From a virus (taxonomy: Duplodnaviria; Heunggongvirae; Uroviricota; Caudoviricetes): 64,000 nt of DNA. Below, in pieces: positions 15,551-62,668 of this stretch. Every line of letters begins with the position of its first letter. The first letter of the stretch is position 1. The notes below the pieces were generated by a model. It was not told the origin of the DNA, did no database searches, and saw only the letters and a list, made by a program, of their open reading frames with translations. A program made the position numbers and the translations under genes. The stretch lies in IMG/VR virus record IMGVR_UViG_3300048593_000385, one strand, 5' to 3'.

Positions 15551-15579
15551 ACTATAACCCGAATCGGAAATAATAGCAA
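15551..15579 (-). promoter_or_regulatory. Early sigma70-like promoter cassette copy 1 (-35 TTGCTA, 17 bp, -10 TATAGT)
   Basis: Minus strand reads GTGCTTGCTATTATTTCCGATTCGGGTTATAGTGAATAATAGG. Member of the approx. 50-bp repeated cassette. Confidence 0.5.
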
Positions 15580-15588
15580 GCACTATTT

Positions 15589-16032
15589 TCATTCTTCTTC
15601 AAAATTATAATGCTCGGGGATGTCATACATCTCCATGAGATAGTCAGGGATGTTGCTGAAATCGTCTGGATCAATCTCGAAATCTTCATCCACACCATTG
15701 CTGAATTCACCAACATATCCTGCTCCTGGTTCGAAATACTGAGCCTCGACCTCAAACCCAAGACGCTCTAGAGCCTCATAGAACTTGATTGGAGGAGCCC
15801 AAGCAGTTTCGAACATGCAGTCAAGGCTGGTCTCATCAGACTCAAAGACTTGACCTTCGTTGATGTCCCATTTGGTGCCCCAATTTTGCACACACCAGTC
15901 ATAATCCCAGCCTGTTGGACAGGCAACGAACTCATTGAGCAGTGTGTCCTGTTCAATGGCAGTTTTTGCACGAACAATCATCTCTGGATCATTGTGGGTA
16001 AGAGTCACATTATTTGAGCACCAATTAGGCAT
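15589..16032 (-). CDS. Hypothetical conserved phage protein (acidic)
   Basis: 147-aa ORF starting MPNWCSNNVTLTH, preceded by cassette copy 2. Confidence 0.5.
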   Translation of the reverse strand: MPNWCSNNVTLTHNDPEMIVRAKTAIEQDTLLNEFVACPTGWDYDWCVQNWGTKWDINEGQVFESDETSLDCMFETAWAPPIKFYEALERLGFEVEAQYFEPGAGYVGEFSNGVDEDFEIDPDDFSNIPDYLMEMYDIPEHYNFEEE

Positions 16033-16060
16033 AAAATTTCCTTTTCAATTCCTATTATTC

Positions 16061-16089
16061 ACTCTAACCTATTTTTAAAAATAAAGCAA
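16061..16089 (-). promoter_or_regulatory. Early promoter cassette copy 2 (TTGCTT-17-TAGAGT)
   Basis: Minus strand reads AATAGTGCTTGCTTTATTTTTAAAAATAGGTTAGAGTGAATAATAGGAATTGAAAAGG, then ATG. Confidence 0.55.
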
Positions 16090-16092
16090 GCA

Positions 16093-16323
16093 CTATTTTT
16101 CTTGATTCTTGAGCTTCTCACGCTTACGATCACCGAGCCAGAAGAGACCAAAGAACGGTCCGATGATAATTACGGCAGCAAGTACAACTGGCCACGTCAG
16201 AGATCCAATAAAGGTGACCCAAAATATACCAAACTTACTATCAATATCTGTATCAAGCGTGCCGACTACGTACGAACCTACTGCAATAAACAAAATAGCA
16301 ACAATTAACCACAACCAAAACAT
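16093..16323 (-). CDS. Small integral membrane protein
   Basis: 76 aa with three predicted TM helices. Confidence 0.45.
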   Translation of the reverse strand: MFWLWLIVAILFIAVGSYVVGTLDTDIDSKFGIFWVTFIGSLTWPVVLAAVIIIGPFFGLFWLGDRKREKLKNQEK

Positions 16324-16324
16324 A

Positions 16325-16555
16325 TTAAACTTCCTTCTTATCTATATTCCATTTAAAATGATTCCGAGTATATACAATCGCAAGAGCGATGCTCATCGGA
16401 ATCAATCCCCATGCTTCGCTGGCAATAATCCATGTCACCCAGAGGACTTGGTTGGCAAGACCGACCGCCCATGCACGAGGATGATTATTGCCAGCGAGTA
16501 ATGTCATCCAGATAGTAAGGCATGACATCAACCATGGTAGATACGTTACAATCAC
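16325..16555 (-). CDS. Small integral membrane protein
   Basis: 76 aa, hydrophobic, Trp-rich. Confidence 0.45.
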   Translation of the reverse strand: MIVTYLPWLMSCLTIWMTLLAGNNHPRAWAVGLANQVLWVTWIIASEAWGLIPMSIALAIVYTRNHFKWNIDKKEV

Positions 16556-17514
16556 GCAGCTTCAGCCATCTCGAGCGCGAGGTTACCAGCCTCAAGCTTG
16601 CGACGCTGGTTATAACCAAACCAAGCCGAAGTCAGGCGAGTGTCAGCCGAACGACCAAGAAGGTGATCGGTTGAGTAGGTAACAGCATTAAATGCCTGCC
16701 ACCAAGAGCCAGCAGCATATTCGGCTCCAGGCTGAGTCTCGAGAACTTCGTAAGCCAGCTTGGCAGCACGCGACTGCAGTTCCAACGGATCGACTTCCTT
16801 GCGAGTGGTCATCGGGAATACACGATTGAAATATTCAACGATCGACTCGTTGTTATAACGCTTGGTCGAGAGATACTCAGCCATTTCCTTGTAACGAGCC
16901 AGCTTATCCTTAGAGACGCCGAGGACTTCCTTGACCATATCGCCGTCAAACACCTGACGGTGGTTCATCTTGAACATACGCTCAGCTGTGCCGTTCAGCG
17001 ACATAGTCAGAGTGTTGTTGCAGACAACACGGATGGGAGTGAAACGAACGTCAACGGTCTTGCCGTACTGGTGAGGATTCGAGAAGAGAAGGTATCCTTC
17101 AACCTTGTCGTCACCGTTGATCTCGAAGGATTCGTTAACCTTTGCGAGAGCCCAGATATTACGACCACCCTTGAGCGAGCCAGCCGTATGCATTTCCATA
17201 TCGCCAGCAGCGATAAAGTCATTGAAGAATTCGAATGCCTCACGATTCTGGACAGGATTCCAGTCATCGCCAACCATGTCGAAGAACTTATTGTCAGAGG
17301 TGCGAACCAAAGCGGAACGACCAGTGTCAATGCGCTTGCCATTAACTTCGGCAAAAGCAGGGAACTTCTCGACTTCCCAGTCGAGACCAGCAGCCTTCAT
17401 CATCTGCTCGGGCGAGAGATCCGAAGGAACCTTGGTACCAAGACCGTGCCAAGGCAGGTCGCCAGCGTAAGCCATCGAAGCAGCATCGCCGATCATTTCA
17501 AGTTCATGAGCCAT
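16552..17514 (-). CDS. DUF932-like phage/plasmid protein
   Basis: 320 aa starting MAHELEMIGD. Overall resemblance to the phage/plasmid-like DUF932 (TIGR03299-type) family is from memory only. Its 5' UTR contains a perfect hairpin (17536-17559) between the promoter cassette and the ATG. Confidence 0.45.
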   Translation of the reverse strand: MAHELEMIGDAASMAYAGDLPWHGLGTKVPSDLSPEQMMKAAGLDWEVEKFPAFAEVNGKRIDTGRSALVRTSDNKFFDMVGDDWNPVQNREAFEFFNDFIAAGDMEMHTAGSLKGGRNIWALAKVNESFEINGDDKVEGYLLFSNPHQYGKTVDVRFTPIRVVCNNTLTMSLNGTAERMFKMNHRQVFDGDMVKEVLGVSKDKLARYKEMAEYLSTKRYNNESIVEYFNRVFPMTTRKEVDPLELQSRAAKLAYEVLETQPGAEYAAGSWWQAFNAVTYSTDHLLGRSADTRLTSAWFGYNQRRKLEAGNLALEMAEAA

Positions 17515-17569
17515 AATATAATTTCCTTTTCAAACGGAGAGGGAACCATTCCCCTCTCCTCATATTCTC

Positions 17570-17598
17570 AATATAACCTAGTTTTTAAAATAAAGCAA
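17570..17598 (-). promoter_or_regulatory. Early promoter cassette copy 3 (TTGCTT-17-TATATT)
   Basis: Minus strand reads AATAATGCTTGCTTTATTTTAAAAACTAGGTTATATTGAGAATATGAGG. Confidence 0.55.
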
Positions 17599-17614
17599 GC
17601 ATTATTTTTAAAAA

Positions 17615-17968
17615 TTAAGCAGCAAAAAGATATTTCGCACGATCAGCTGTCGTCTTGAACATCTTACCGTTTTCTTCATAGATGAACGGGAACTTCGGCT
17701 TGCGAGTATCGTAGCGAACCAGCTTGCGACCGTTCTTTTCCATAACCAGATTGTATGCTTCAATCATACGCTGCAGGTTCAGGTCGGTGCGAGTAACAGC
17801 ACCCTTGATTTTGGTGGTCAGCTTAATCGTAGCTTCAGCTTCGCTAAAACGAATACCACCAATATCAAAATCAAGACCAGACTTTGCAGCGTAGGCATCC
17901 AGAACAGTCTGGAGATCATCACGAAGAGCCTTCAGCGAGGCACGGTCAAAAGAGGTAAACTTGGTCAT
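17615..17968 (-). CDS. Hypothetical protein
   Basis: 117-aa ORF downstream of cassette copy 4. Confidence 0.5.
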   Translation of the reverse strand: MTKFTSFDRASLKALRDDLQTVLDAYAAKSGLDFDIGGIRFSEAEATIKLTTKIKGAVTRTDLNLQRMIEAYNLVMEKNGRKLVRYDTRKPKFPFIYEENGKMFKTTADRAKYLFAA

Positions 17969-17999
17969 AAAAACTTCCTTTCTTCATTTCCTATTATTC

Positions 18000-18028
18000 A
18001 CTCTAACCTAATTTTAAAAATAAATCAA
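18000..18028 (-). promoter_or_regulatory. Early promoter cassette copy 4 (TTGATT-17-TAGAGT)
   Basis: Minus strand reads AATAATGCTTGATTTATTTTTAAAATTAGGTTAGAGTGAATAATAGGAAATGAAG. Confidence 0.5.
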
Positions 18029-18606
18029 GCATTATTTTCAGAATCATAAACTTTTTTTCCGTGCTTATAAATTTGCTTTTTGGTCAGCACACCCTGCATG
18101 CGTGGATCCTTGATTCGGTCGTTAGCCTTTAAGGTTTCGTAACGCTTTTTGAGTTTCGGGAGCAGGAGATCATATACAGTCTGACAATCCATCTGCCAGA
18201 TCTCCATGCATTCTCCATTTTCCCATCGAGAATGGTAGTGATTTTTGTATGCCAAAATCTTTTGGTCAAGATATTCCAGTTGCTCTTCCCATGTAGGGAA
18301 GAACGAAATTCCGCCATACACTGCATCAAACTTTCCTTTATACACTGCATCTTCGCCAGGAGAGCAAGATTTAATCTCGGCAGGTCCATCGGCGTCGTAA
18401 GCATCTGCTCCACTCACAGAGTTGCTGATTGTAAATCCAAGAATATTGCAGACGACGATCTCTTGACTTCGACCTGGAACAAAGGGATTACCCCATTTAT
18501 TTTGTCGGCAGACTTTTTGCGAACCAGAGCTATAAAAGGCGAATTTTTCTTCAGGAGAATATTTTCCTAAGATAGCTTCGATTGCCAGTTTGTCCTGCTC
18601 AAGCAT
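18025..18606 (-). CDS. Hypothetical protein (Cys/Trp-rich)
   Basis: 193-aa ORF. No motif recognised. Confidence 0.5.
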   Translation of the reverse strand: MLEQDKLAIEAILGKYSPEEKFAFYSSGSQKVCRQNKWGNPFVPGRSQEIVVCNILGFTISNSVSGADAYDADGPAEIKSCSPGEDAVYKGKFDAVYGGISFFPTWEEQLEYLDQKILAYKNHYHSRWENGECMEIWQMDCQTVYDLLLPKLKKRYETLKANDRIKDPRMQGVLTKKQIYKHGKKVYDSENNA

Positions 18607-18608
18607 GG

Positions 18609-18809
18609 TTATGCTTCCACCAACATATGCTTTTCGATGTAATGGTCACGAAAATCTTCGTAGAGGTAGCCCTCTTCTTGGGCAACGATCAAACCATCAC
18701 CATTACAGATGGAACGTTCACCATGGCAATTTTCCATGATATACACCATATGCTGATCCTGGAGATCATAGGAGTTATCGTACATGTTATCAAATTCATC
18801 ATAAGTCAT
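18609..18809 (-). CDS. Hypothetical small acidic protein
   Basis: 66-aa ORF adjacent to the previous gene. Confidence 0.35.
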   Translation of the reverse strand: MTYDEFDNMYDNSYDLQDQHMVYIMENCHGERSICNGDGLIVAQEEGYLYEDFRDHYIEKHMLVEA

Positions 18810-18831
18810 AATTCATTTCCTTTTCTCATCT

Positions 18832-18839
18832 TATAAATA
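18832..18839 (+). promoter_or_regulatory. T4-type late promoter TATAAATA on plus strand
   Basis: Exact TATAAATA 69 nt upstream of the plus-strand small basic ORF. Confidence 0.4.
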
Positions 18840-18840
18840 C

Positions 18841-18869
18841 ACCATAACCTGTTTTTTAAAATAAAGCAA
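18841..18869 (-). promoter_or_regulatory. Early promoter cassette copy 5 (TTGCTT-17-TATGGT)
   Basis: Minus strand reads AATAACTCTTGCTTTATTTTAAAAAACAGGTTATGGTGTATTTATAAG. Confidence 0.5.
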
Positions 18870-18907
18870 GAGTTATTTTCTAAAAAATATGATTGGGAGA
18901 AAAAATT

Positions 18908-20445: not shown

Positions 20446-21390
20446 TTAATCCTTGTATACTACTCTTGCCCCGTCTAATGCGACAGCCACATCAAGACAG
20501 ACTCGATCAGAAAACTCATGCTTCAATTTGTTTTTGTTGTCAGTCAGAGCCAGCATATATCCACCTCCTCCTGCGCCAAGCAGCTTTGCCCCTGACGCAC
20601 CAGCCTTCAGGCATCGGTCATAAAGAGAATCAATCTCTGGGCTGCTGATTCCACCTTCCAGCTGTTTCTTAAACTTCCATGCTTCGTTGAGCAGTGGACC
20701 GTAGAGATCGTAGGTCGGAGAAAGGTCGGCATGCATATCCGCCATGTGTGACATTTCACGAATGAGGTATGTCTTTTGATCAAAATCAATTTTATTGAGA
20801 ATCTCTGCAGCATGGCGCTGAATGTTTGTCGGAATCAAAACCATGGAGCTATCGATGCCTTTAGGGTCGATTCTCTGGACCAACACCCGATCGCTGGCAA
20901 GATATTCAATATAATTCATGCCACCGAAGGCAGAGGCATACTGATCTTGCTTCCCGATTGCCCAGCCGCACATATCGATCTCAATGTTACATGCAGCTTC
21001 CGCTAACTCATATTCGCTATACCGTTTACCGTTAGGGAAATATTCAGCAAGAGCAGCCACCAGTGCACAGGCGAAAGCAGAAGAACCTGCCAACCCTGTG
21101 CCAACTGTAGGAATATCAGCGAACGTGGTGATCTCGATATTAGATTTGATACCGAAATATTTTAAGGCATTCTTGACAATTTCATTTTGAATGTCATCAA
21201 CAGCAGTCACCAATTCTTGTTTAGAATAGTTGATCTTGATGTGATTCTGAGGAGTTCTTCCTACTGCAACGTAGACATACTTGTCAATCGCAGTAGAGAT
21301 TGTTGATCCGCCCCAACGAAGGTAGTGGGCAGGAATATCCGACCCACCACCAAAGAAGGAAACTCGAAGAGGTGCCTTAGCAAGAATCAT
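20446..21390 (-). CDS. hddA: GHMP-family sugar kinase (D-glycero-D-manno-heptose 7-phosphate kinase, HddA-like)
   Basis: 314 aa. MILAKAPLRVSFFGGGSDIP at the N-terminus and the GHMP motif PTVGTGLAGSSAFACALVAAL. Confidence 0.75.
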   Translation of the reverse strand: MILAKAPLRVSFFGGGSDIPAHYLRWGGSTISTAIDKYVYVAVGRTPQNHIKINYSKQELVTAVDDIQNEIVKNALKYFGIKSNIEITTFADIPTVGTGLAGSSAFACALVAALAEYFPNGKRYSEYELAEAACNIEIDMCGWAIGKQDQYASAFGGMNYIEYLASDRVLVQRIDPKGIDSSMVLIPTNIQRHAAEILNKIDFDQKTYLIREMSHMADMHADLSPTYDLYGPLLNEAWKFKKQLEGGISSPEIDSLYDRCLKAGASGAKLLGAGGGGYMLALTDNKNKLKHEFSDRVCLDVAVALDGARVVYKD

Positions 21391-21392
21391 AA

Positions 21393-22421
21393 TTACGACT
21401 TGTAGATAAACTTGGGAGCAGGAACAGACAGATCCTTACCTTCGTATTCATTCAACAACGATTCGCAGAGCGCATTCCATTGACTACCAATCTTATCCCA
21501 GTTGTAGCGATAGTCGGCATAAGTCTTTTGGAACTGTAGATACGGCATCATATCATTGTCGCGCATCTTTTGGATTGTGTCATCCAGAACAGCATAGAAC
21601 ATATTCGCATGAACATTGACATCCTGATCCCAATGGTACTGAATGGTAATGCTACCCGAGGTATCGGTAAGACCAGCATAGTTCGGGTGAACACAGACAG
21701 CACCAGATGACATTGCCTCGATCAACGACTGGCTGTTGCATTCTGGCCAGATCGAAGGATAGGCAAAGATATGTGCCTTTGCGACAGTCTCACGAACTGT
21801 TTCGTTCGGAGCAAAGCCATGGTAGTTAATCTTAGGATGATTACGACACTTGTCAAACAGATCCTCGAACTGTTGATCAGCATTTTCCCAACCGTAGATC
21901 TTATAGCTTGAGAAAACGTCAAGCACGATATTGTCATACTTTTCGCATAGCTTCTCGAACACAGGAACAAGAATGTTCAGACCACGTTGAGGAGTGCTGG
22001 TGTAAACCAAACGAATTTCTTCTTTCGGATCACTCTTGTTGATTGGGCCAAAAGGAGTTGTCGCAGTATCAATGACACAGCTTTGCTGAGTGTGCGGAAT
22101 TCCCAAATGATTTTGGTACATGTTCATCTGCCACTGGCCACAGTAGACAATCTTGTGGAAACGGTTGCGACTGTTCTCGGCGGTCAAATGCTTGGTCTCG
22201 GGATCCCAAGGCAAATCGTGCAACCAATAGATACGGATGCGATCATCATGCAGCTCGCGCACACGCGAGGGGATAATCTGAAACTTTTCGTGGTACTCTG
22301 GCTTCAATCGAGCCAGAACACCTTCCATCATTCGCTCTGTCCCACCTTGAGACTTTGCGTTCAATTCATTACGTTCCCAAATACTACTCATTGTAATTTC
22401 CCATCGTAAGTTCGGAGCCAT
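21393..22421 (-). CDS. Putative glycosyltransferase (GT-B, family 1/4-like)
   Basis: 342 aa. The C-terminal half (IRLVYTSTPQRGLNILVPVF ... AYPSIWPECNSQSLIEAMSSGAVCV) resembles the GT1/GT4 nucleotide-sugar-binding domain. Confidence 0.45.
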   Translation of the reverse strand: MAPNLRWEITMSSIWERNELNAKSQGGTERMMEGVLARLKPEYHEKFQIIPSRVRELHDDRIRIYWLHDLPWDPETKHLTAENSRNRFHKIVYCGQWQMNMYQNHLGIPHTQQSCVIDTATTPFGPINKSDPKEEIRLVYTSTPQRGLNILVPVFEKLCEKYDNIVLDVFSSYKIYGWENADQQFEDLFDKCRNHPKINYHGFAPNETVRETVAKAHIFAYPSIWPECNSQSLIEAMSSGAVCVHPNYAGLTDTSGSITIQYHWDQDVNVHANMFYAVLDDTIQKMRDNDMMPYLQFQKTYADYRYNWDKIGSQWNALCESLLNEYEGKDLSVPAPKFIYKS

Positions 22422-23383
22422 GGTTGCCCAACAAGCATCTGGCTACTAATAGATTCAAAGTGTGAAGTGATGATGTCGGCGAGATCATACTTTGGACCTT
22501 CTGGCCACATCAACGACAATTTATATGGATCGCCAATCAGGAATCCAGGATCGCCTGGACGAACTTCCGCAATATCATATTCCAGAGGATATAGTTTTGC
22601 GAATGTAAGAGCAAGTTGCAGATTCGACACAGGTTTGCCACTGCAAACATTGAAGGTGTCGTATTCACGTTCAGGCTTATTATATAGTTGTTCTGCTGCA
22701 GCAACCAGAGCATCACACACATCAGCTACGTGGATATAATCTCTTACGCATGTTCCATCAAAGGTGTCGTATTCATTACCGTTGATGTAGAATGTGTCAT
22801 CAGTCAAAGATGCCTTTGACATTTTGGTAAGGATATGTGGTTGATTAGCAGCTTGGCCGATACCTTTGTATGCACCAGCAACATTGAAGAAGCGCATTGA
22901 GTATGCCTTGAGGCCATACGCTTCGCATGATTCTTTCAACATCATCTCACCAACCCACTTGGTTGAGCCATAGGGATTGATTGGACTTCCAGCCACAACT
23001 TCAGGCAAAGGATCAGGGCTGCGCATATCACCATATGTTGCAGCAGAGGATGCAAAGATAAATGCACCCTTCCAGTTTTCTCTAGCTAAATTGGACAGCA
23101 TATCGCACATACTACTAACGTTATTATCATAGTAGTATAGTGGTTTGGATACCGATGGCCCAAGCAAACTGTTAGCGCCAAGATGGAAGATTGCATCAAC
23201 GCCATCCAGATCGCCGTCAGAGGCAATTGTTGCATAATTATCAATAAAAAACTCATCAGTGTTCCAGTCGTAATTGTCACACTTTACGTCTACGCCAATG
23301 ACATAATAACCAGCTTCTTTCAGCTTTAGCTGGAGAACACGCCCGATGAACCCTGATGCTCCAGTAACAATCGCCTTCTTCAT
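22388..23383 (-). CDS. NAD-dependent nucleotide-sugar epimerase/dehydratase (SDR extended family)
   Basis: 331 aa. N-terminal Rossmann motif MKKAIVTGASGFIGRVL and the YxxxK catalytic pair further downstream. Confidence 0.8.
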   Translation of the reverse strand: MKKAIVTGASGFIGRVLQLKLKEAGYYVIGVDVKCDNYDWNTDEFFIDNYATIASDGDLDGVDAIFHLGANSLLGPSVSKPLYYYDNNVSSMCDMLSNLARENWKGAFIFASSAATYGDMRSPDPLPEVVAGSPINPYGSTKWVGEMMLKESCEAYGLKAYSMRFFNVAGAYKGIGQAANQPHILTKMSKASLTDDTFYINGNEYDTFDGTCVRDYIHVADVCDALVAAAEQLYNKPEREYDTFNVCSGKPVSNLQLALTFAKLYPLEYDIAEVRPGDPGFLIGDPYKLSLMWPEGPKYDLADIITSHFESISSQMLVGQPWLRTYDGKLQ

Positions 23384-23736: not shown

Positions 23737-24264
23737 TTATTCTACATCCTCAAAGACCATATAGCTCTTCACCGAATTGAGACGGAAGCTGCGCCATTCG
23801 TTCTTCTCTAGATCGAAGACAACAACCAGACCATCGGTATCCTTACGAGTCCGTTCAGTTTTCTTTTCAGGAGCAGTGTATTGCTCAGAGATAACCTGAG
23901 AGTTCTTGGTGCAGAGCATGGTGCGCTCGGTGCCATCAGCCTTGGTGAACACAACACTGAGAGTTGCACCTTCATCGAGAGCCTGTTCAATTTCACTCTT
24001 CTCGAACGATGCCTTCAGTTCCTGGAAACCACCAATGTGAGTCCAATTTTCTTTGAGTTTGTTAGTATCTTGGATCAGCCAAATCTGTGGAACAGACCGA
24101 GCTTCTGGGGCCATAGCAAACAAATCTTCACGGTCATAATCTACGTTCAGTGTAAGATAGTCAAACTTCATACCTTTGGAGGTCAGAAGTGCCTTAGCCT
24201 GTTCACAGAAAGGGCAATCATCTTTGCCGTAAATCACATAAATATTTTCCATAATCATTTCCAT
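23737..24264 (-). CDS. Glutaredoxin-domain protein (NrdC-like) with C-terminal extension
   Basis: 175 aa with an N-terminal CPFC active site in a glutaredoxin context (VIYGKDDCPFCEQAKALL). Confidence 0.6.
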   Translation of the reverse strand: MEMIMENIYVIYGKDDCPFCEQAKALLTSKGMKFDYLTLNVDYDREDLFAMAPEARSVPQIWLIQDTNKLKENWTHIGGFQELKASFEKSEIEQALDEGATLSVVFTKADGTERTMLCTKNSQVISEQYTAPEKKTERTRKDTDGLVVVFDLEKNEWRSFRLNSVKSYMVFEDVE

Positions 24265-24452
24265 TCTACATTGTTAATAATAATTTCGGAGTTGGGGTAA
24301 GTGCGCTTCAGATATGCCTGAACAGCAAAATCTGACTTCGCGTTGTTGAGGTGGATTGTGGGAGAACCTTGAAGCATCCGCCGATTGCTGATGCCATTCT
24401 TGTTCTCATAAAAGTCAACCATAAAGTTAGTCATATCAATCTCCTATTATTC

Positions 24453-24481
24453 ACTCTAACCTATTTCGGAAATTAAAGCAA
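24453..24481 (-). promoter_or_regulatory. Early promoter cassette copy 6 (TTGCTT-17-TAGAGT)
   Basis: Minus strand reads AAAGTCCTTGCTTTAATTTCCGAAATAGGTTAGAGTGAATAATAGGAGATTG. Confidence 0.5.
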
Positions 24482-25138
24482 GGACTTTTTATAGAGATTG
24501 ATGCGATCCATGGCTTTGTAGATCCAATCGTTTCGCTTTTCGACAAAGACAGAAGGTTTGGTTGACTCTTCGGTGCCGATCAGAATGACCAGCTGAGGAA
24601 CAGGAATTCCTGTAAGTTCCTCGAACATCACTGCATATATAGATGTCTGCAGAAAGTAGTCCTCAATCCATTCACGCTTCTTGACCTTGTTACTGGACTT
24701 ATAGTCAATGATTGAGGTCTTTCCTTGCCAATCAGCAACGAGATCGACTCGACCTGCGATACCAAGGAAGTTTGAATATAGAGGAGATTCAACACCTCTG
24801 ATATTGTTGACATTTTCCTGTATGACTGGTCGCAGCTGACTGAACAACTGCACAGGAACAGGCATTTCTTTTCGAAGATCATAGGGTTGGTTAAGGACTA
24901 GCTTCTCGCACAATAGGTGGAGAGCAGTTCCTCGATCAGCTGTTCTCTTGCTCTCTCGAGCAGCAGCCTCTTCGCCTAATCTTTCTTTCCATTTCTGGAG
25001 ATGAGATTGGTCTTTTGTTGCACCTAGAACAGTGGTGACGGAAGGATACACAATTCCCTCAGGAGTAGTGTAGAACCTTCCGTCTTCACGTGTTTCAGAT
25101 TCAAGTTCAGTAAAGTCTATAAGATTCAATTCAAACAT
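24473..25138 (-). CDS. PD-(D/E)xK family nuclease (Cas4/RecB-exonuclease-like)
   Basis: 221 aa. Motifs GRVDLVADWQGKTSIIDYKSS (D..E/D.K core) and the C-terminal QTSIYAVMFEEL. Confidence 0.5.
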   Translation of the reverse strand: MFELNLIDFTELESETREDGRFYTTPEGIVYPSVTTVLGATKDQSHLQKWKERLGEEAAARESKRTADRGTALHLLCEKLVLNQPYDLRKEMPVPVQLFSQLRPVIQENVNNIRGVESPLYSNFLGIAGRVDLVADWQGKTSIIDYKSSNKVKKREWIEDYFLQTSIYAVMFEELTGIPVPQLVILIGTEESTKPSVFVEKRNDWIYKAMDRINLYKKSLL

Positions 25139-25147
25139 AACAATGTT

Positions 25148-25176
25148 ACTATAACCTAGTTAGAGAAAAAAGTCAA
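25148..25176 (-). promoter_or_regulatory. Early promoter cassette copy 7 (TTGACT-17-TATAGT)
   Basis: Minus strand reads ATATCGCTTGACTTTTTTCTCTAACTAGGTTATAGTAACATTG. Confidence 0.5.
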
Positions 25177-25994
25177 GCGATATTTAACTCTGCGATGATA
25201 AATTCTTTGACGAATCCAGAACGAACGATATCCTGGATCTCAAACTCAATCTTGGAAACCGATGGAATTCTATCCATAATTTTCATGATTGATTTAAGAC
25301 CAGATTCTTCGCTGTATCTGGAGCTGGTTAGATCGTCCTGATTGACATCTCCGCAGATAACGATCTTAGAGTTATCTCCGACACGAGTCAATACAGTTTT
25401 TAATTCTTGGTAGGAAAGGTTTTGCGCTTCATCGATGATAATGATTGCATCATCAATCGTGGTACCGCGAAGGAACGATGTTGATTCAAATTCAACAATT
25501 CCCTTATTCTTTAGAACTTGGTATGCGTCGCCTCGATCAAACAACTTAGAACAGATCGAGGAGTAGGGTGTTTCATAGACTTCCATCTTTTGTTTTGCAG
25601 TTCCTGGTAAGAAACCGATGCCTTTGGAAGATTGTGCGCTTCGGATGATTACAACTTTTTGAAGTTTTGAATTATTGTTGGCCAATTCATCTAGAGCAAG
25701 GTAAAGGCTGATAAAGGTCTTTCCGCTTCCTGGGACTCCATGAAGCAATAGATTTTTACCTGTCGAGTATTCTCTAAATGTCTTTCGTTGATTTTCAGTT
25801 TTCGGTTTAATGTTTTCTAGCTGAAGAGGATTCGGTTGATGTAATTGGACAACGTTATTAGGTTTACCTCTTTGAGATTTTCTAGACATCTTTCTCTCTT
25901 TACGAGTCGGTCTATAATTGTTTTCTTCTGTAATATCAAAAGCAGTTTGAGACATAGGGATAAGCTCCATGTTAGGAACGGTTGATACGATCAA
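25173..25994 (-). CDS. phoH: PhoH-like ATPase
   Basis: 273 aa. Walker A LLHGVPGSGKTFISLYLA and Walker B IIIIDEAQN. This is the typical PhoH core common in marine phages. Confidence 0.9.
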   Translation of the reverse strand: MIVSTVPNMELIPMSQTAFDITEENNYRPTRKERKMSRKSQRGKPNNVVQLHQPNPLQLENIKPKTENQRKTFREYSTGKNLLLHGVPGSGKTFISLYLALDELANNNSKLQKVVIIRSAQSSKGIGFLPGTAKQKMEVYETPYSSICSKLFDRGDAYQVLKNKGIVEFESTSFLRGTTIDDAIIIIDEAQNLSYQELKTVLTRVGDNSKIVICGDVNQDDLTSSRYSEESGLKSIMKIMDRIPSVSKIEFEIQDIVRSGFVKEFIIAELNIA

Positions 25995-28287: not shown

Positions 28288-28297
28288 TCAATAATTC

Positions 28298-28326: not shown

Positions 28327-28329
28327 GGA

Positions 28330-42851: not shown

Positions 42852-42871
42852 GTTTCGTTCTCCTATTATTC

Positions 42872-42900: not shown

Positions 42901-42903
42901 GAA

Positions 42904-51265: not shown

Positions 51266-51294
51266 AATATTCCAATCATCAAAGGCTACATCCC

Positions 51295-51322
51295 ATTATA
51301 CCCTAAATCGAAATAAAAGCAA
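51295..51322 (-). promoter_or_regulatory. Early promoter cassette copy 14 (TTGCTT-16-TATAAT) upstream of primase
   Basis: Minus strand reads ACTTCTTGCTTTTATTTCGATTTAGGGTATAATGGGATG. Confidence 0.5.
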
Positions 51323-51336
51323 GAAGTATTTTATGG

Positions 51337-54135: not shown

Positions 54136-55230
54136 TTATACTTTATATTTATTGAAGTAGTCAACGACTTCCATACTACCCGTCGAGACATTGAGCCAAT
54201 CTTGGCGCTGTTCAGGGGAAATGATGGTGATATTTGAAGCATCTTCAAACATCTTGCGTTTCTCGAAAGTTTTTGCCATAACATCAAGTACAGCAGATTC
54301 AACAGCTGGAACTCTCTTGTTGACCGAAGTAGCATTCATAGCGTCGCCAGACTTGCCTGACTTCTTGTAGATTTCACCAGTCTTTGATTGTGCGATTTGA
54401 TCAGCACCACCCATTGAAGTGTCAGTCATGCAACCTTCACTTTCTTCCTTGGCAAGTTTTCTAACTGCAGTCAAAACGCCCAAAGAACGCTTTACAGCTT
54501 TGGCATCTTCTTTTTCGCCAGCAGATGAATCTGTGTCGCCACGCTCGCCTTGCTCGAATCCACCCTTAGAAGCCAAATTGCTGATCGACTTTTCGCTGCT
54601 AGGAGCTAGGGATTTGATCACATAAGAATTGAGAGTTCCCTTCGACAATTCGTCAAGTTCTTCAGCTTCTTCCTTGGTCAGTTTATTAACAGCGAGTTTA
54701 ATACCCTTTTCGCGCTTGCCCATGTCCTTAAAGTTCTTGCTCGACTTTTCGTCTGCAGCAATCTTCAGGCCAGCTGTAACACCTTGACTGCCCATTTTTG
54801 TGGCAGCCTTGTTGATATAACGACCCATTGTATCCTTTGAAAGTTCATCAATCTGTTCTGCGTCTTCTTTGGTCAACTTCTTGACAGCAGTTTCAATACC
54901 TCTATGGCGCTTGTCGAGCTTTTTGCCTAAAGATGCGACATGCTTTGGGTTAGCGGCCACATCAGCTTCTTTGTGACCTTGTCTCCAAGCAGTTAGATCA
55001 ATAGAGTTTTTTGCTTTATTGATATAGCGACCAAGTGTTGGCTTTGAGATCTCATCAAGATCTTCAACTTCTTCAGCAACTTTGTTCTTACCACGAAGAA
55101 GTTTGAAGTCATGAGCATCAACCTTGCCATTCTTGTTGGCATCAATCTTATGCTGATTACCTTTTAGTTCATCGATCTGCTCGAACTTCGCTCGAGCCTC
55201 CGACAACTTCATTTTAATGAATTCTGACAT
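54136..55230 (-). CDS. Lysine-rich protein with three about 65-aa ELDELSK-TLG-YI-KA repeats (family member 1)
   Basis: 364 aa. Repeats EDLDEISKPTLGRYINKA / EQIDELSKDTMGRYINKA / EELDELSKGTLNSYVIKS, each ending in AV-KLTKEE. TATAAATA late promoter at 55255-55262. Confidence 0.5.
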   Translation of the reverse strand: MSEFIKMKLSEARAKFEQIDELKGNQHKIDANKNGKVDAHDFKLLRGKNKVAEEVEDLDEISKPTLGRYINKAKNSIDLTAWRQGHKEADVAANPKHVASLGKKLDKRHRGIETAVKKLTKEDAEQIDELSKDTMGRYINKAATKMGSQGVTAGLKIAADEKSSKNFKDMGKREKGIKLAVNKLTKEEAEELDELSKGTLNSYVIKSLAPSSEKSISNLASKGGFEQGERGDTDSSAGEKEDAKAVKRSLGVLTAVRKLAKEESEGCMTDTSMGGADQIAQSKTGEIYKKSGKSGDAMNATSVNKRVPAVESAVLDVMAKTFEKRKMFEDASNITIISPEQRQDWLNVSTGSMEVVDYFNKYKV

Positions 55231-55254
55231 GTTATTCTCCCAAATTTTATTATC

Positions 55255-55262
55255 TATTTATA
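55255..55262 (-). promoter_or_regulatory. T4-type late promoter TATAAATA
   Basis: Minus strand reads TATAAATAG about 25 nt upstream of the ATG at 55230. Confidence 0.45.
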
Positions 55263-55282
55263 ATTATCGGTATCTTATGATC

Positions 55283-56692
55283 TCAACGATACTTGGGCAT
55301 GCCATAATCACCACTGTCTTTGTGGGCAGGTGTTGGCTCGGAAACAGCTTTTACGAATGCATCATGCGAAGCACTGGCTTTCTTTTGGAACGCAGCTTTA
55401 TCTTGAGTCGTTCTGCGAGCAGCCATGTGATCATTAAATGCAGTAATATGTCTTGGGTGAATCTCATGTTTTTTGCCATCATCAAATTCTACATGAGAAT
55501 TGATTGATGCTGCTTTGCGAAGTTGCATACCAAGAGCAACTGGCTCTTCTTTTGGCTTACCTGCAGAAGCTGCAGCCTGTTGGCGATGCCAAGCTGCCGA
55601 GCCTTCTTTGGCTGGGCGACCGCGACCTTCTTCGAGTTTCTTAAGAACACCAGTTAAAAATTTGTTTTCTTTCATGACTTCTTCCTTGGTAAGTTTATCA
55701 GCTGCTCTTGTGATTCCTGTTTCGCGATTTTTACGGAGACGCTCTGCTTTGTCGTAAGTTGCTTGGTTGAATCTTTTGCCAAAGTGTCCTGTTTCACTAT
55801 CGCCTTGATATGCAGCGATTTTTGTCAGAGGAAGATTCTTTGGTGACATTACATTCTTTGGCTGTTCAGCACCAGATGCCTTCTTGATATATGAACCAAG
55901 AGTTCCCTTTGACAATTCGTCAAGTTCTTCAGCTTCTTCCTTGACAGCATTCTGACGAAGACTCTTGTAACGACGGACAGCAGCTTTTCGCTCAGAAGAA
56001 CCACCAGGAGTTTTTAGAAGATCAGCATACGCCTTCTTGATTTCTGGATTTGTCACACCTTCATCAATTTCAACTTCTTCGTTGGTTTTCTTGGCCTTCT
56101 CAATTGTTCTGAGCGCACGGGCAGTGCTCTTCATATCTTTGTTCATCTTACCAAAAGACTGCGGCTTCTTTAACTTGCTAGATTTGCCATCTGGACTGAT
56201 ATCGTAATCTCTTTCACGCTTTCCTTTTAGATAGCGATGAGCCATATCAGAAGAAATCTCATCCATCTGCTCAACTTCTTCATTTGCTGGGAGGTGTGGA
56301 GTCACCTTAAACTTATGAAGTGGACCATTGGCATTTTTTCCACTCTTGTTGTATGCACGGATGTGAACGCTCGCGCCATCATTTTTTGTTACGGTGCCAT
56401 AATGTTTGTCGCCAGTTCCTGGAAGATAGTAGTCGACATCATCATTTTTATTCATGTCCTTTGCCATATCAGGATGCATCAAACCATGAGAAGCATAGGC
56501 GCGATGACTATAATTAGCTTCAGCCATATAGTCGTCAAAGTTTTGTTGAAGATGAGACACAGCAGCACCTTCATGCGATGCGCCATGGTCAGCAACAGAG
56601 AAAGATGCCTTGATGTCACCGTCTTTACCTAGGACATGCGAACCTGACTCGTCAGAAAATACTGTTGGTTTCTTAAACATTTGTGTCTCCAT
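55283..56692 (-). CDS. Lysine-rich ELDELSK-repeat protein (family member 2)
   Basis: 469 aa. Contains EEAEELDELSKGTLGSYIKKA and EVEQMDEISSDMAHRYLKGK repeats homologous to those in 54136-55230. Confidence 0.5.
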   Translation of the reverse strand: METQMFKKPTVFSDESGSHVLGKDGDIKASFSVADHGASHEGAAVSHLQQNFDDYMAEANYSHRAYASHGLMHPDMAKDMNKNDDVDYYLPGTGDKHYGTVTKNDGASVHIRAYNKSGKNANGPLHKFKVTPHLPANEEVEQMDEISSDMAHRYLKGKRERDYDISPDGKSSKLKKPQSFGKMNKDMKSTARALRTIEKAKKTNEEVEIDEGVTNPEIKKAYADLLKTPGGSSERKAAVRRYKSLRQNAVKEEAEELDELSKGTLGSYIKKASGAEQPKNVMSPKNLPLTKIAAYQGDSETGHFGKRFNQATYDKAERLRKNRETGITRAADKLTKEEVMKENKFLTGVLKKLEEGRGRPAKEGSAAWHRQQAAASAGKPKEEPVALGMQLRKAASINSHVEFDDGKKHEIHPRHITAFNDHMAARRTTQDKAAFQKKASASHDAFVKAVSEPTPAHKDSGDYGMPKYR

Positions 56693-59153: not shown

Positions 59154-60398
59154 TTATTCTGGCGTGTTAGTGGGTTGACTGCGATTCTTTGACATAGCAA
59201 AGTTCGCAGCACTAAATGCTGGCTTTCCAGGTTCATCTTGGCGGCGAACAAACTTGGATATGTTATTGTCTTTATCAACAGAAACAAATCCTTCAGGTCC
59301 AGACTTCTGTCCGCCTAAAGAATATCCATATTGCTTGTTGTTTTCCAAAGAATTGATCAGAGTGTTCTTGGCTTTCTGCAGGTGATTGTGCAGTCTCAAT
59401 GCTCGCTCAATGTGCGGCTTGTTTACTTGAATATGTGCCAATCTTTGATCAAGCAGAGCTCTCTTGCGGTCTATAGCCGAAGGAGTTTTGAGTTTGGCAA
59501 TAGCCTTTTCTTCTTTTTCTCTGACATGACGCATGAAACCAGCATGAGTCGGAGCACCATTTTGCCTAATCTCATGGTTCAAATATGTTCCGATAGCATC
59601 AGCATGCTGACCAACAGCATCATGGCCATGCTTAGGCATTGCTTGAAATTCTTTTTCAGCAGAATTCATATGATCAAGAAACTTCAATTTCTCTTCATCA
59701 GAATAGTGAGAAGAGTCAACAGGAACCTTGGTCGAAATTACGTGGACATCTGAATGGGATTTGAATCTAGCCAAGTTTGGCATGAATTTCGGACTCATTC
59801 CAGCAAGAGTATTAGTGCCATCGCCTTGATATTCAGTATGCGTTGACACACCAATCTTTGCGTTAGAAACCTTCTTGCCCTCTGTAGAGTTTTTGTCTAC
59901 ATCGTATTTCAAGGTGTTTGGAGTGAAGGAATAAGTTTTACCTTCATCCTGCACATCAGGTTTAGTATACATAACATCGCCCTGATACACCTTATTTCCA
60001 GGAGTAACTTTAGGCAGATGCTCTAGAGCTGCGTTCATCTTCTCGACCAGACCAGGAGCATGACCGTGATTACGTTCAATATCTTCTGGTGTATAGTTTA
60101 TCTTTGGTGTCTTGTTGCCGATTGCTTTGGTTGCAACAAAGAATTTGCCATTTTCGGGATTTGTGCCCCAAACCAATGATGGACTGCCATCATCTTTTCT
60201 TCCGACTTTAACATCAGAAGGAAGTCCACGCATCGCATTGTGCATGCCAATGAGGTGTTTGACTGCATGGCGATAGCCATCTGCTCCATGCATATACGAA
60301 TAATCTTCGACATGAGTCGTATGCCCATGCACTTTACCCGAAGGCTCTTCGGTTTGTTGAGGAGCCTCCTCGGCAAACAATAGATTAAACTTTTTCAT
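59154..60398 (-). CDS. Hypothetical His/Lys-rich protein
   Basis: 414-aa ORF preceded by a TATAAATA late promoter at 60427-60434. Confidence 0.5.
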   Translation of the reverse strand: MKKFNLLFAEEAPQQTEEPSGKVHGHTTHVEDYSYMHGADGYRHAVKHLIGMHNAMRGLPSDVKVGRKDDGSPSLVWGTNPENGKFFVATKAIGNKTPKINYTPEDIERNHGHAPGLVEKMNAALEHLPKVTPGNKVYQGDVMYTKPDVQDEGKTYSFTPNTLKYDVDKNSTEGKKVSNAKIGVSTHTEYQGDGTNTLAGMSPKFMPNLARFKSHSDVHVISTKVPVDSSHYSDEEKLKFLDHMNSAEKEFQAMPKHGHDAVGQHADAIGTYLNHEIRQNGAPTHAGFMRHVREKEEKAIAKLKTPSAIDRKRALLDQRLAHIQVNKPHIERALRLHNHLQKAKNTLINSLENNKQYGYSLGGQKSGPEGFVSVDKDNNISKFVRRQDEPGKPAFSAANFAMSKNRSQPTNTPE

Positions 60399-60426: not shown

Positions 60427-60434
60427 TATTTATA
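60427..60434 (-). promoter_or_regulatory. T4-type late promoter TATAAATA
   Basis: Minus strand reads TTATTATAAATAGAG 29 nt upstream of the ATG at 60398. Confidence 0.45.
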
Positions 60435-60460
60435 ATAAAAAAGGACAAGGAGTTTCCCCC

Positions 60461-61573
60461 TTATCCTAGTTTGAACGCACCAGCCATACCTTTGTGTGGA
60501 CCAGATGTGGCTTTGAAAATTTGGGATGCGACTTTCGTTGGCTTGCCCGTTTCCTTATGGGTTCCCCAAATTTCAGAAGAGATACCTCTGCCTTGTTTTA
60601 CATGTAAGTGCGCAAATTTATCCAGATGTTCGTTGGCAATATCTGCAGCATTATGGATCAGAGGAACTGCAGAACCATCGGATTGAACGTGGCCATGAGC
60701 AACAATATGCGGATATACAGTTGGAGCAGAAACTTGGCTCACTATATGTCTACGCAAATGAGCATCTTGGAGTTCTGGATTGTGTTGGTCTCTGCTCAAC
60801 CCCTGTTCATGCATTCTTGCCATTCTCTGTCTGGCATCAAGAGAAGAAGCTTCTGCAGCAGCAACCTTTGCCTGCACTTCAGGATCCTCAGACTTCAAGT
60901 CTTGCTTGTACTGAGCATGTCTTTCTTTCTTTGATCCTTCGTAGCCCAACTCTGTCATTTTAGAATCATGGTCTCGAGCTATTCTCGTGTAAGAACCTTT
61001 GGCATGACCAGCCTGAGATTCTAATGATTCTAATCCAGAGTTGCGGAAATTTGGTTGCTTTTCTGAACCATATTTTGCCGAAATAGGAATAAAGTTTCGT
61101 TCGCCAGCAGCATTCGTTGTGGTCGCGATAATGTCAGCGTTTGAGTTGACATCTTTGATTCCTGTTGTTTTTTCGTGGTCACCTGCTTTTTTATCTGTGT
61201 CAGCATTAGAAGTCCAGCTGACATCAGCAATCTTGTGACCTCCTGATCCACCAAGCATTCCCTGCCTACCGAGATGGTCTTTTACTGCATCAGCAGTTGC
61301 TCGCGCATGCTCGTGCAACTCATTATATGCTTCCTCGCCAATCTTTTCTCGAAGTCGATCGTGGACTTGCTGGGGAGTTCCGCCGTATTCTTCGTTCTCA
61401 GAACGATGGTGAGAGGGCAATTGTTTCTTACTATCATCTGTGTGTGACATATGATGTGCCAAAAGCAACTCAAACATTTTGCCTTTGTCATCATTTGATA
61501 CTTTAGATGTGGCGGAGAGACTTGGTTTTCTCGCCTCATCCAGATAGTGTTTGTATTCTTTAAAAGATAACAT
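60461..61573 (-). CDS. Hypothetical His/Lys-rich protein (possible paralog of 59154-60398)
   Basis: 370-aa ORF of similar composition, with a TATAAATA late promoter at 61599-61606. Confidence 0.5.
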   Translation of the reverse strand: MLSFKEYKHYLDEARKPSLSATSKVSNDDKGKMFELLLAHHMSHTDDSKKQLPSHHRSENEEYGGTPQQVHDRLREKIGEEAYNELHEHARATADAVKDHLGRQGMLGGSGGHKIADVSWTSNADTDKKAGDHEKTTGIKDVNSNADIIATTTNAAGERNFIPISAKYGSEKQPNFRNSGLESLESQAGHAKGSYTRIARDHDSKMTELGYEGSKKERHAQYKQDLKSEDPEVQAKVAAAEASSLDARQRMARMHEQGLSRDQHNPELQDAHLRRHIVSQVSAPTVYPHIVAHGHVQSDGSAVPLIHNAADIANEHLDKFAHLHVKQGRGISSEIWGTHKETGKPTKVASQIFKATSGPHKGMAGAFKLG

Positions 61574-61598
61574 AAGTCCCCCAGGATCGCATTTTTAT

Positions 61599-61606
61599 TA
61601 TTTATA
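61599..61606 (-). promoter_or_regulatory. T4-type late promoter TATAAATA
   Basis: Minus strand reads TTTATAAATAATAAAAATG 26 nt upstream of the ATG at 61573. Confidence 0.45.
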
Positions 61607-62249
61607 AAATCCAGGAAGGTGCCTCTCTCTTTTTCCAGGCATGCATTCTAGCTTTGCCGATTTTGTAGTAGTTTCGATAGTTCGTAACGGGATCTTTGCT
61701 GATGATATACTCCTGATCCATACAAGATGGCATTTCGGTCATATCATATTCAGTCAGATTTAAAGGAGGAGACTGAAGCATATAGCCCAGTTTCTCTATA
61801 GTTTTGTGCGTTTTCCCGTAACGATAGCTATACTCAGAACCAAGAGCAAGAAGATGATCGGCGAGCCAAACATAATTGCAAACAGACTCACGACACCAAA
61901 CAGCGCTAGGGTGATTAATATGAGTTGCATTATACATGACATCATTTCGGTTATCATCAAGCACCCAAACTTTCTTTTTTCTGAGTTTGTCTGTCGAAGG
62001 AACACGATATGTCACCTCGACAGGAGCACCGTCAAGCACACGATGAGCAGTGGAGAGAAGCTGTGCCGACTCAAGAATCATCTTGACGACATGCTTGTCA
62101 ACCATCCACTCAGCGCATTGCTTGGGATCTTCATGAAGATAGAAGATATTCATATTTATATCACTCGTATGCGTATGCAACGATGTCTTGCACAATATCT
62201 GAGGTTCTACGATAATTGGGATGCACCCTATCTTTGGTAGGAATACCAA
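61602..62249 (-). CDS. Hypothetical protein
   Basis: 215-aa ORF. Start uncertain; there is an internal MNIFYLHEDPKQCAEWMV candidate start. Confidence 0.45.
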   Translation of the reverse strand: MVFLPKIGCIPIIVEPQILCKTSLHTHTSDINMNIFYLHEDPKQCAEWMVDKHVVKMILESAQLLSTAHRVLDGAPVEVTYRVPSTDKLRKKKVWVLDDNRNDVMYNATHINHPSAVWCRESVCNYVWLADHLLALGSEYSYRYGKTHKTIEKLGYMLQSPPLNLTEYDMTEMPSCMDQEYIISKDPVTNYRNYYKIGKARMHAWKKREAPSWIL

Positions 62250-62580
62250 TAGCGCCTAGATCTACAATGGCATCAGGGAACTGTTGTGCAACCTTGCGAA
62301 TCGCAGCTGCTGCTTTTCGGTCATATGGTAGAATCCACACAACAAAGCCAACGTCTAATGATTCGCGAAGCTTCAGCGCATTCTGATAGTTGCGAGGATT
62401 CATAGGAGCATTAGAGCCCATAGAGATTACCGCATGACCGCCTACCTTGGTGCCAGAAAACTTCTTGACAATAAAATCAGTATCAGCGCCAACCTTGGCA
62501 TAGATGCCACAGCTAGGTTCATACTTCTGTAAACCAACAGCGATACTGTCGCCGATATAAACACAATCCATCATGGCCAC
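62161..62580 (-). CDS. SGNH/GDSL-like hydrolase (short)
   Basis: 139 aa. The N-terminal VYIGDSIAVG matches GDSL block I. It overlaps the previous ORF in another frame. Confidence 0.4.
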   Translation of the reverse strand: MAMMDCVYIGDSIAVGLQKYEPSCGIYAKVGADTDFIVKKFSGTKVGGHAVISMGSNAPMNPRNYQNALKLRESLDVGFVVWILPYDRKAAAAIRKVAQQFPDAIVDLGAIGIPTKDRVHPNYRRTSDIVQDIVAYAYE

Positions 62581-62639
62581 ATTTCCTTATCATTTAACAT
62601 TTCATCACGTTCTTCGGGAGAAACCCGACTAACAATTAC

Positions 62640-62668
62640 ACTATACGCTGTATATGAAATTAAAGCAA
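62640..62668 (-). promoter_or_regulatory. Early promoter cassette copy 15 (TTGCTT-17-TATAGT)
   Basis: Minus strand reads TTTGTGCTTGCTTTAATTTCATATACAGCGTATAGTGTAATTG. Confidence 0.5.

Follow-up and report, generated by a model that had tools for sequence, protein, structure and literature searches.

This report concerns a repeated promoter-like cassette of ~50 bp on the minus strand of a 64,000-nucleotide (nt) stretch of viral DNA (IMG/VR record IMGVR_UViG_3300048593_000385), which at its full length we call the window. The window encodes 23 tRNAs together with gp32, a primase, NrdA/NrdB, PhoH, a PD-(D/E)XK nuclease, and DUF932 and DUF6267 proteins; the segment from 1 to 10.8 kb holds T4-type baseplate, tail-tube, head-completion and DNA-end-protector genes. 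The best protein matches were to cyanomyophages, Pelagibacter phage HTVC008M and Methylophilales phage Melnitz, and the gene order is that of the first 50 kb of Melnitz. Together, the protein matches, the gene content and the synteny with Melnitz indicated that the window belongs to an uncultured T4-like myovirus in the aquatic group related to Kyanoviridae. When the window was compared with GenBank phages by megablast, no near-identical relative was found, and the tRNAs gave the only match.

Cassette copies in the window

An earlier note on this DNA had listed 15 copies of the cassette, all on the minus strand, and this description was borne out and extended. Each of the 15 listed positions is the 3′ end of a minus-strand −10 hexamer, and the 54-nt segments around them align without a gap when anchored on CTTG. 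A position weight matrix (PWM) built from these 15 copies scored 24.9 to 70.3 bits at the 15 sites, whereas our background, 30 shuffles of the window that preserved dinucleotide composition, reached at most 4.5 bits, with no match above 15 bits. Two additional copies were recognised, one at 13058-13111 (−10 end at 13070) and a more diverged one at 50282-50335 (−10 end at 50294), bringing the total to 17 copies scoring 24-70 bits, all on the minus strand; the plus strand of the window contained none. An unbiased repeat finder placed the cassette (families D1 and D3-D5) first by size among the direct-repeat families of the window, ahead of the tRNAs. A generic σ70 consensus scan of the window showed no enrichment (52 vs. 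40 and 39 vs. 39), indicating that the signal resides in the extended cassette and not in its hexamers. Searches outside the window for an exact cassette 20-mer gave no match in IMG/VR or the JGI metagenomes, a degenerate cassette pattern gave only chance matches in metagenomes, and a 17-mer of the cassette had 31 matches in bacterial genomes, none of them a full cassette.

Every copy lies upstream of a co-oriented open reading frame (ORF) or tRNA gene. The genes served are mostly small ORFans, and they also include the DUF932, nuclease, methyltransferase and primase genes and three tRNA sub-clusters, which supports the earlier description of the copies as σ70-like promoters preceding early or metabolic genes and tRNA sub-clusters. 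The 17 copies are given below as −35 hexamer, spacer length in bp and −10 hexamer; "exact leader" denotes the 13-mer GTGAATAATAGGA, and in the text the copies are named by the 3′ end of the −10 hexamer.

13058-13111, minus strand: TTGACT-17-TATAGT, −10 end at 13070; ATG of a 190-amino-acid methyltransferase-like gene (12471-13043) at 26 nt.
15539-15592, minus strand: TTGCTA-17-TATAGT, exact leader; before a small membrane ORF (15313-15522); the upstream ORF reaches into the A-tract with its stop codon.
16049-16102, minus strand: TTGCTT-17-TAGAGT, exact leader; before a 147-amino-acid ORF (15589-16032), which it brackets together with copy 15551.
17558-17611, minus strand: TTGCTT-17-TATATT; a 55-nt leader with a GC hairpin, then the DUF932 gene (16552-17514).
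17988-18041, minus strand: TTGATT-17-TAGAGT, exact leader; before a 117-amino-acid ORFan (17615-17968); the upstream ORF terminates within the cassette.
18829-18882, minus strand: TTGCTT-17-TATGGT; before a 66-amino-acid ORFan (18609-18809).
24441-24494, minus strand: TTGCTT-17-TAGAGT, exact leader; AGGAG is the Shine-Dalgarno sequence of a 59-amino-acid ORF (24255-24434), with its ATG 18 nt past the −10.
25136-25189, minus strand: TTGACT-17-TATAGT; ATG of the PD-(D/E)XK nuclease gene (24473-25138) at 9 nt.
28286-28339, minus strand: TTGCTT-17-TATAGT; directly 3′ of the CHASE2-cyclase gene and before an ORF of ~75 amino acids.
37194-37247, minus strand: TTGACA-17-TATAGT; directly 3′ of tRNA-Leu; a 186-nt structured leader, then tRNA-Thr and tRNA-Ala.
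38985-39038, minus strand: TTGCTT-17-TAGAGT, exact leader; before a 66-amino-acid ORF and two tRNA-Lys genes.
41358-41411, minus strand: TTGACT-17-TATATT; 5′ end of tRNA-Asn at 17 nt, then tRNA-Arg, -Met and -Cys; ortholog kept in related locus L083.
41977-42030, minus strand: TTGACT-17-TAGAGT; before a 134-amino-acid ORF (41552-41956).
42860-42913, minus strand: TTGCTT-17-TAGAGT, exact leader; AGGAG is the Shine-Dalgarno sequence of a 95-amino-acid ORF (42564-42851).
50282-50335, minus strand, probable diverged 17th copy: TTGACT (50322-50317)-17-TATAAA (50299-50294); within the 3′ end of the primase gene, ~30 nt upstream of the start of ORF 49977-50264; counterpart in related locus L001.
51282-51335, minus strand: TTGCTT-16-TATAAT; before the primase gene (50249-51265).
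62628-62681, minus strand: TTGCTT-17-TATAGT; T-rich upstream in place of the A-tract; before ORF 62161-62580; ortholog in L001.

The late block from 1 to 10.8 kb contained no cassette. By comparison, the T4 late-promoter motif TATAAATA occurred 11 times in the window, relative to 2.06 expected, and five of the 11 occurrences lie inside that block.

Among the positions of TATAAATA are 5566-5573, 55255-55262, 60427-60434, 61599-61606 and 62153-62160. Several occurrences stand just upstream of genes, for example a baseplate tail-tube-cap-like gene (4705-5538) and the DUF6267 gene (59154-60398). Judged from the motif, late (gp55-type) promoters seem to be scattered between 54 and 62 kb.

Anatomy of the cassette

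In the numbering used here the −10 hexamer occupies positions −12 to −7. Most copies carry the A-tract AAAATA at −45 to −40, with 0.8-1.2 bits per position, and this tract is kept family-wide in the relatives described below; tracts of this kind resemble the subsites of UP elements. The −35 hexamer, at −35 to −30, reads (C)TTGCTT or TTGACT, with TTG present in all 17 copies; the variants are TTGCTT (nine copies), TTGACT (five), and TTGACA, TTGCTA and TTGATT (one each). TGCTT, to which the earlier note had drawn attention, is thus present in nine copies, or 10 with TTGCTA, and six copies have the canonical TTGAC(T/A). The note's claim that the spacer is exactly 17 bp, and once 16 bp, was confirmed: copy 51295 has 16 bp and each of the other 16 copies has 17 bp. 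The spacer changes from T-rich to A-rich (TATTTTTAAAAATAGGT), and its G at −14 is well conserved. The −10 hexamer is TA(T/G)AGT, in which T−12 and A−11 occur in 17 of 17 copies and T−7 in 16, the 50294 copy having TATAAA.

Downstream of the −10 hexamer the segment from −6 to +5 is AT-rich, begins with G at −6 and ends in TAGGA. Here the earlier note had described a conserved, fixed leader, which proved too strong: the exact 13-mer GTGAATAATAGGA is found in only six of the 17 copies (its six occurrences in the window are each on the minus strand), while a G at −6 and an AT-rich run are common to the others. When up to two mismatches were allowed, GTGAATAATAGGA had eight matches vs. 2.08 expected. 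Copies 18000 and 38997 have ~18 nt in common (repeat family D16).

The distance from the −10 end to the likely start codon is 9-32 nt in 12 copies, and 18-32 nt in most. It is longer at copies 17570 and 62640 (55-59 nt, with a hairpin-bearing leader), and 186 nt separate the −10 of copy 37206 from tRNA-Thr. In copies 24453 and 42872 the conserved AGGA(G) doubles as the ribosome-binding site. At copy 25148 the nuclease ATG lies only 9 nt past the −10, so the mRNA would be leaderless or nearly so; the same arrangement of nuclease gene and cassette is kept in related loci L082 and L088, and Melnitz has a promoter in the same position. Upstream ORFs often terminate within the A-tract or the −35 hexamer, and the cassette therefore occupies the entire intergenic space.

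A palindromic operator within the spacer (TATTTTT/AAAAATA) was considered and rejected. Its complementarity, centred at −22.5, was 861 vs. 860 expected from column composition, and is explained by the T-run and A-run. In the spacer dyad test the best z among related sequences was ~3, and the variants containing G or C were centred differently.

Two leaders have a structure of their own. In the DUF932 leader (17515-17569, minus strand) a perfect 8-bp GC hairpin (GGAGAGGG...CCCTCTCC) separates the promoter from the Shine-Dalgarno sequence, and the start of this leader is kept in L088. The 180 nt between cassette 37206 and tRNA-Thr (37021-37200, minus strand) fold at −59.3 kcal/mol (z −4.2) with a 19-bp closing helix; the sequence had no Rfam match and no homolog in the related loci. 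From the predicted fold, it may be an unannotated phage noncoding RNA driven directly by an early promoter.

Conservation in related phages

Protein-anchored searches yielded ~80 syntenic IMG/VR loci, which served as relatives of graded distance: L088/L082 and L083 are ~81-92% identical to the window in nucleotide sequence, L089/L090 have 79% amino acid identity in DUF932, and dozens of others are at 60-66%. In these loci the seed PWM gave 126 matches on the gene strand and none on the opposite strand, and the iteratively refined PWM gave 450 and three, respectively. The logo of 301 unique sites shifts away from the seed preferences (TTGCTT, TAGAGT) to the A-tract AAAATA, TTGACA, a T-run and an A-run within N17, and TATAAT, whereas the AT-richness at −6 to +1 is weak. 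As a sequence pattern, the family logo is that of a textbook housekeeping-sigma promoter with an UP-like element.

The complete Melnitz genome had 31 PWM matches vs. 4.1 in shuffles, nearly all of them in non-structural regions and on the gene strand. Some are at positions orthologous to window copies, for example upstream of the PD-(D/E)XK nuclease gene and next to the transfer-messenger RNA (tmRNA) gene. Within a 14-kb early region of T4 the PWM selected three early-strand sites, which precede motA, ndd.4 and ndd.6; two of the three have 26 identical nt from about −16 to about +10, showing that identity beyond the −10 is not peculiar to the window.

Each lineage, T4 itself included, has its own homogenised version of the cassette. 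That of the window and L088 is GCTTGCTTTATTTT..AGGTTA(G/T)AGTGAATAATAGG, that of L089/L090 is GCTTT(A/C)C..TTTTTTCAAAT(T/C)TAGGTTAGAATGAATTATAG, that of L121/L122 is GCTTGCTTTATTTC...TATGATGAATTATAG and that of Melnitz is GCCTTGACATTTGTT...AACATGTATACT. The spacers of L089 are 90% identical to one another within the genome and 68% identical to those of the window. Between orthologous copies of the window and L088 (~86% identical), TTGCTT is exchanged with TTGACT, TTGATT with TTGCTT, and TAGAGT with TATAAT, TATAGT or TATATT, in either direction; since orthologs at this identity switch hexamers, the individual variants are interchangeable.

In Melnitz (MZ577097; L178/L210/L211) a cassette peculiar to that phage and nearly identical from copy to copy, GCCTTGACaTTTGTT-N-AAAACATGTATAcT, recurs, for example, at 3980, 32305, 33527, 38687, 39020, 67275 and 136619. 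Within the spacer of this cassette is a dyad, TGTT...AACA, that includes G/C positions and has its centre near −21.

Probable role as early promoters

We consider it highly probable that the cassettes are early-class promoters of a T4-like (Melnitz/pelagimyophage-like) myovirus and are read by a host σ70-type holoenzyme. We propose that unmodified host RNA polymerase with its housekeeping σ70-type factor would read them immediately after infection. The A-tract AAAATA (−45 to −40) would serve as a proximal UP-like contact for the α C-terminal domains, and the −35 hexamer, the 17-bp T-run/A-run spacer, G−14, the −10 hexamer and an AT-rich discriminator and start region (GAATAATAGGA) would supply the other stacked contacts; such stacking of polymerase contact elements would make the cassettes "uber-promoters" like the early promoters of T4. 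Transcription would start at an A ~7-8 nt past the −10, at a pyrimidine-purine TA step, giving leaders of ~10-25 nt in which AGGA would sometimes itself be the ribosome-binding site, and tRNA precursors with a short 5′ leader. That many copies are nearly identical and that each lineage has its own flavour would most likely be the result of concerted evolution, through duplication of promoter-plus-ORF modules and recombination among the copies.

T4 early promoters combine UP, −35, TGn and −10 elements with "additional regions of consensus" (PMC2988021), and each T4-like phage has its own early logo, A-rich at −40 to −44, with early promoters upstream of tRNAs and novel ORFs (PMC1524935). The cassettes resemble promoters of this type (Hinton 2010, PMC2988021; Nolan et al. 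2006, PMC1524935) in their σ70-type −35 and −10 hexamers, 17-bp spacer and A-rich UP-like tract, in conservation that extends past the hexamers, and in forming many co-oriented copies of phage-specific flavour upstream of ORFans and tRNAs; the clade PWM also recovers the T4 sites upstream of motA and ndd. They differ in having GGT (with G−14) where T4 has TGn, TTGCTT or TTGACT where T4 has GTTTAC, and TA(T/G)AGT as the −10 hexamer. In addition, the Alt and Mod enzymes are probably absent here.

The early promoters predicted for Melnitz (PMC9004378) are likewise of σ70 type and, in a syntenic early region, stand before the same genes (among them the nuclease gene and the tmRNA region). The paper independently gives their number as 31, which equals the number of our PWM matches as a count only. 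A difference is that Melnitz has its own homogenised version of the cassette, GCCTTGACaTTTGTT-N-AAAACATGTATAcT. The Melnitz promoters were predicted with BPROM, and the relevant passages of the paper do not mention a conserved cassette (PMC9004378). Mapped early promoters of cyanomyophages were sought in the literature without success.

Several points weigh against the assignment to host-read early promoters. The preferred hexamers, TTGCTT and TAGAGT, are not the best σ70 matches, yet they are commoner in the window than TTGACA and TATAAT. There is no extended −10 of the TGn type, as −15 to −13 read GGT, with G−14 kept and T−15 not. The window encodes an alphaproteobacterial-type two-piece tmRNA, so that E. 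coli rules may not transfer exactly. The lineage-specific conservation of the spacer and of −6 to +5, positions that polymerase reads weakly, could be due to a lineage-specific DNA-binding protein. Finally, the sequences show the anatomy, strand, position, absence from the late block, conservation and family logo of the cassettes, and from these we infer the start sites, the timing, the polymerase and sigma factor used and the mechanism of homogenisation.

As early promoters, the cassettes are an ordinary T4-type start of infection and not a new regulatory system. They provide a ready early-promoter model for an uncultured Melnitz/pelagimyophage-like branch, based on the 17 window sites and ~300 sites in relatives, and such a model permits annotation of early, tRNA and late (TATAAATA) units in metagenomic genomes, where predictions of the BPROM type are noisy. 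Homogenisation of early promoters within each lineage, known from coliphages and vibriophages, is shown to extend to this aquatic clade.

A possible second role in recombination

The ~50-bp repeats might also act as patches of homology for the insertion, deletion and swapping of promoter-plus-ORF modules, a second role that is compatible with promoter function and that we regard as possible but rather unlikely. The model for such a role is provided by PeSLs (promoter-early stem-loops), conserved cassettes in three T4-like branches that consist of an upstream terminator stem-loop and an early promoter and mediate modular shuffling (PMC2839356, PMC4122927). The window cassettes share with PeSLs (Arbiol et al. 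2010, PMC2839356; Comeau et al. 2014, PMC4122927) an AT-rich tract, a σ70-like promoter (N17), a Shine-Dalgarno sequence and a start codon; as in PeSLs, the repeats have the same orientation and often flank single ORFans, and the nt-1/KVP40 consensus TTGYVH-N17-TAWWAT is close to that of the window. Recombination of the PeSL kind would explain the near-identity of the copies, and their lineage-specific homogenisation favours it.

Cassettes also mark the start or end of some differences in gene content between the window and its relatives. Pairs of cassettes 430-880 bp apart enclose several single ORFs, and L089 is without the module formed by cassette 16061 and ORF 15589-16032. Homology with L088 starts again precisely at the −35 hexamer of copy 16061. 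In L083 homology stops 8 nt past cassette 42872 and resumes ~20 nt before cassette 41370, and four tandem modules of cassette and small ORF are present where the window has different genes. When breakpoints were counted, however, those within 30 nt of a cassette amounted to 5 of 25, vs. 18 of 90 for gene ends (p = 0.58). As the two fractions are equal, there was no enrichment beyond that expected from gene boundaries, and in this respect the cassettes may differ from PeSLs.

They do differ in the stem-loop. When the 64 nt upstream of 16 window copies were folded, no upstream stem-loop was found in any of them (mean z −0.55), the sole strong fold being tRNA-Leu; a terminator scan of the window was at chance level, with no hairpin abutting any window cassette. 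A stem-loop was present only in two copies of relatives, where a GC hairpin and T-run abut the −35 (L088 at 12525 and L089 at 11214). By sequence comparison, then, the cassettes are PeSL-like but lack the stem-loop. A role in recombination is possible but not demonstrated, being supported anecdotally, by individual junctions, and not statistically.

The two hairpin-bearing copies span 12480-12530 in L088 and 11170-11215 in L089. In both the GC-rich hairpin and the T-run that follows it replace the A-tract of the window copies, which is the true PeSL layout.

Proposed lineage-specific proteins and MotA-like factors

The positions that vary by lineage (TTGCTT, the spacer, −6 to +5 GTGAATAATAGGA, and in Melnitz the TGTT...AACA dyad) might instead mark the site of a lineage-specific protein, either phage-encoded or injected with the virion, which we consider improbable. 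Such a protein would mark phage early promoters, for instance to strengthen them relative to host promoters or to silence them when the phage passes from early to late expression. If present, it would represent a novel mode of transcriptional timing in aquatic T4-like phages, which are very abundant, since the clade is without MotA/AsiA and without a recognisable middle class.

A more specific proposal, for which we see very little likelihood, is that a phage-encoded MotA/AsiA-like or other protein recognises TGCTT and/or −6 to +5, making the cassettes a middle-type or phage-specific class. The proposal has a basis in likeness to the T4 middle promoters: CTTGCTTTA, with its TGCTT core and T/A flanks, fits eight of nine positions of the MotA box (a/t)(a/t)TGCTT(t/c)a, and the −10 is likewise of σ70 type. 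In addition, each lineage has its own variants at positions weakly read by polymerase, and co-evolution with a lineage-specific binding protein would yield the same pattern. The spacing is different, however, as TTGCTTTA ends 15 bp from the −10, whereas the MotA box lies 12±1 bp from it (PMC2988021), and it coincides with a normal −35 at 17-bp spacing. The MotA-box sequence matches in 9-10 of the 17 copies, the rest having TTGAC(T/A) (six copies) or TTGATT; the box alternates with a canonical −35. Orthologs at 86% identity interconvert TTGCTT and TTGACT, and TTGATT and TTGCTT, and the −35 of the family logo is TTGACA. Nor does the spacer argue for a bound protein, its dyad symmetry being fully accounted for by T-run/A-run composition (861 vs. 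860).

The gene content of related phages points the same way. Pelagimyophages and cyanomyophages are reported to be without alt, modA, modB, asiA and motA (PMC7029224), and no middle promoters were found in Melnitz (PMC9004378). The earlier note had suggested looking for a MotA/AsiA-like pair: tblastn with T4 MotA and AsiA found nothing in the window, and in ~2 Mb of related loci matches had E values of at least 0.7 (best 0.7), which is chance level. Its inference of a MotA-like or other phage-specific factor was therefore not supported by box spacing, by the six TTGAC(T/A) copies or by the switching of hexamers between orthologs.

Its other suggestion, that the conserved GTGAATAATAGGA is a shared regulatory RNA motif of the 5′ untranslated region, for example a translational-repressor or RNase site, is the least likely of all and close to negligible: although six copies share the exact 13-mer past the −10, copies 18000 and 38997 share ~18 nt and AGGA is purine-rich and Shine-Dalgarno-like, a start 7-8 nt past the −10 would leave at most ~5 conserved nt (AGGA...) in the transcript, 11 of the 17 copies lack the exact motif, sequences past +5 are unrelated, the motif is present before tRNA genes too, where translational control has no place, the family-wide logo has only weak AT-richness at the motif, RNAalifold found no pairs in the 60 nt after the −10 of 16 copies, and Rfam searches at gathering and E-value thresholds returned nothing on any cassette.

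Other features of the window

A two-piece (permuted) tmRNA of alphaproteobacterial type, with tag ANDNDVAFALAA, is encoded at 14633-15049 (minus strand), as reported also for pelagimyophages and for Melnitz. A glutamine riboswitch accompanies the tmRNA in Melnitz, but none was detected beside it here. A match to the manA RNA motif (Rfam RF01745; 66 bits vs. a gathering score of 55) occupies 33994-34163 (minus strand), at the 3′ edge of the tRNA region, and TATAAATA follows directly after it. The product of the gene at 28330-30411 (minus strand) is a fusion of a CHASE2 sensor domain and a class III adenylate/guanylate cyclase domain. This gene is kept in L082, and Melnitz likewise has an adenylate/guanylate cyclase gene. 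The early region also contains a cluster at 20446-23383 (minus strand) of GHMP kinase, group-1 glycosyltransferase and NAD-dependent epimerase/dehydratase genes, which may be a sugar-nucleotide or surface/DNA modification module.

Repeats other than the cassette were found in two places. From 54441 to 56282 (minus strand), repeats spaced by ~200 nt (D8, D10 and D13) lie in and between the adjacent genes 54136-55230 and 55283-56692, a pattern which suggests that the two may encode paralogous proteins with internal repeats. On the plus strand, a 131-nt direct repeat (8579-8709 and 8831-8961; 72% identity, 252-nt spacing) lies within a tail/peptidase-like gene of 687 amino acids (8168-10231).

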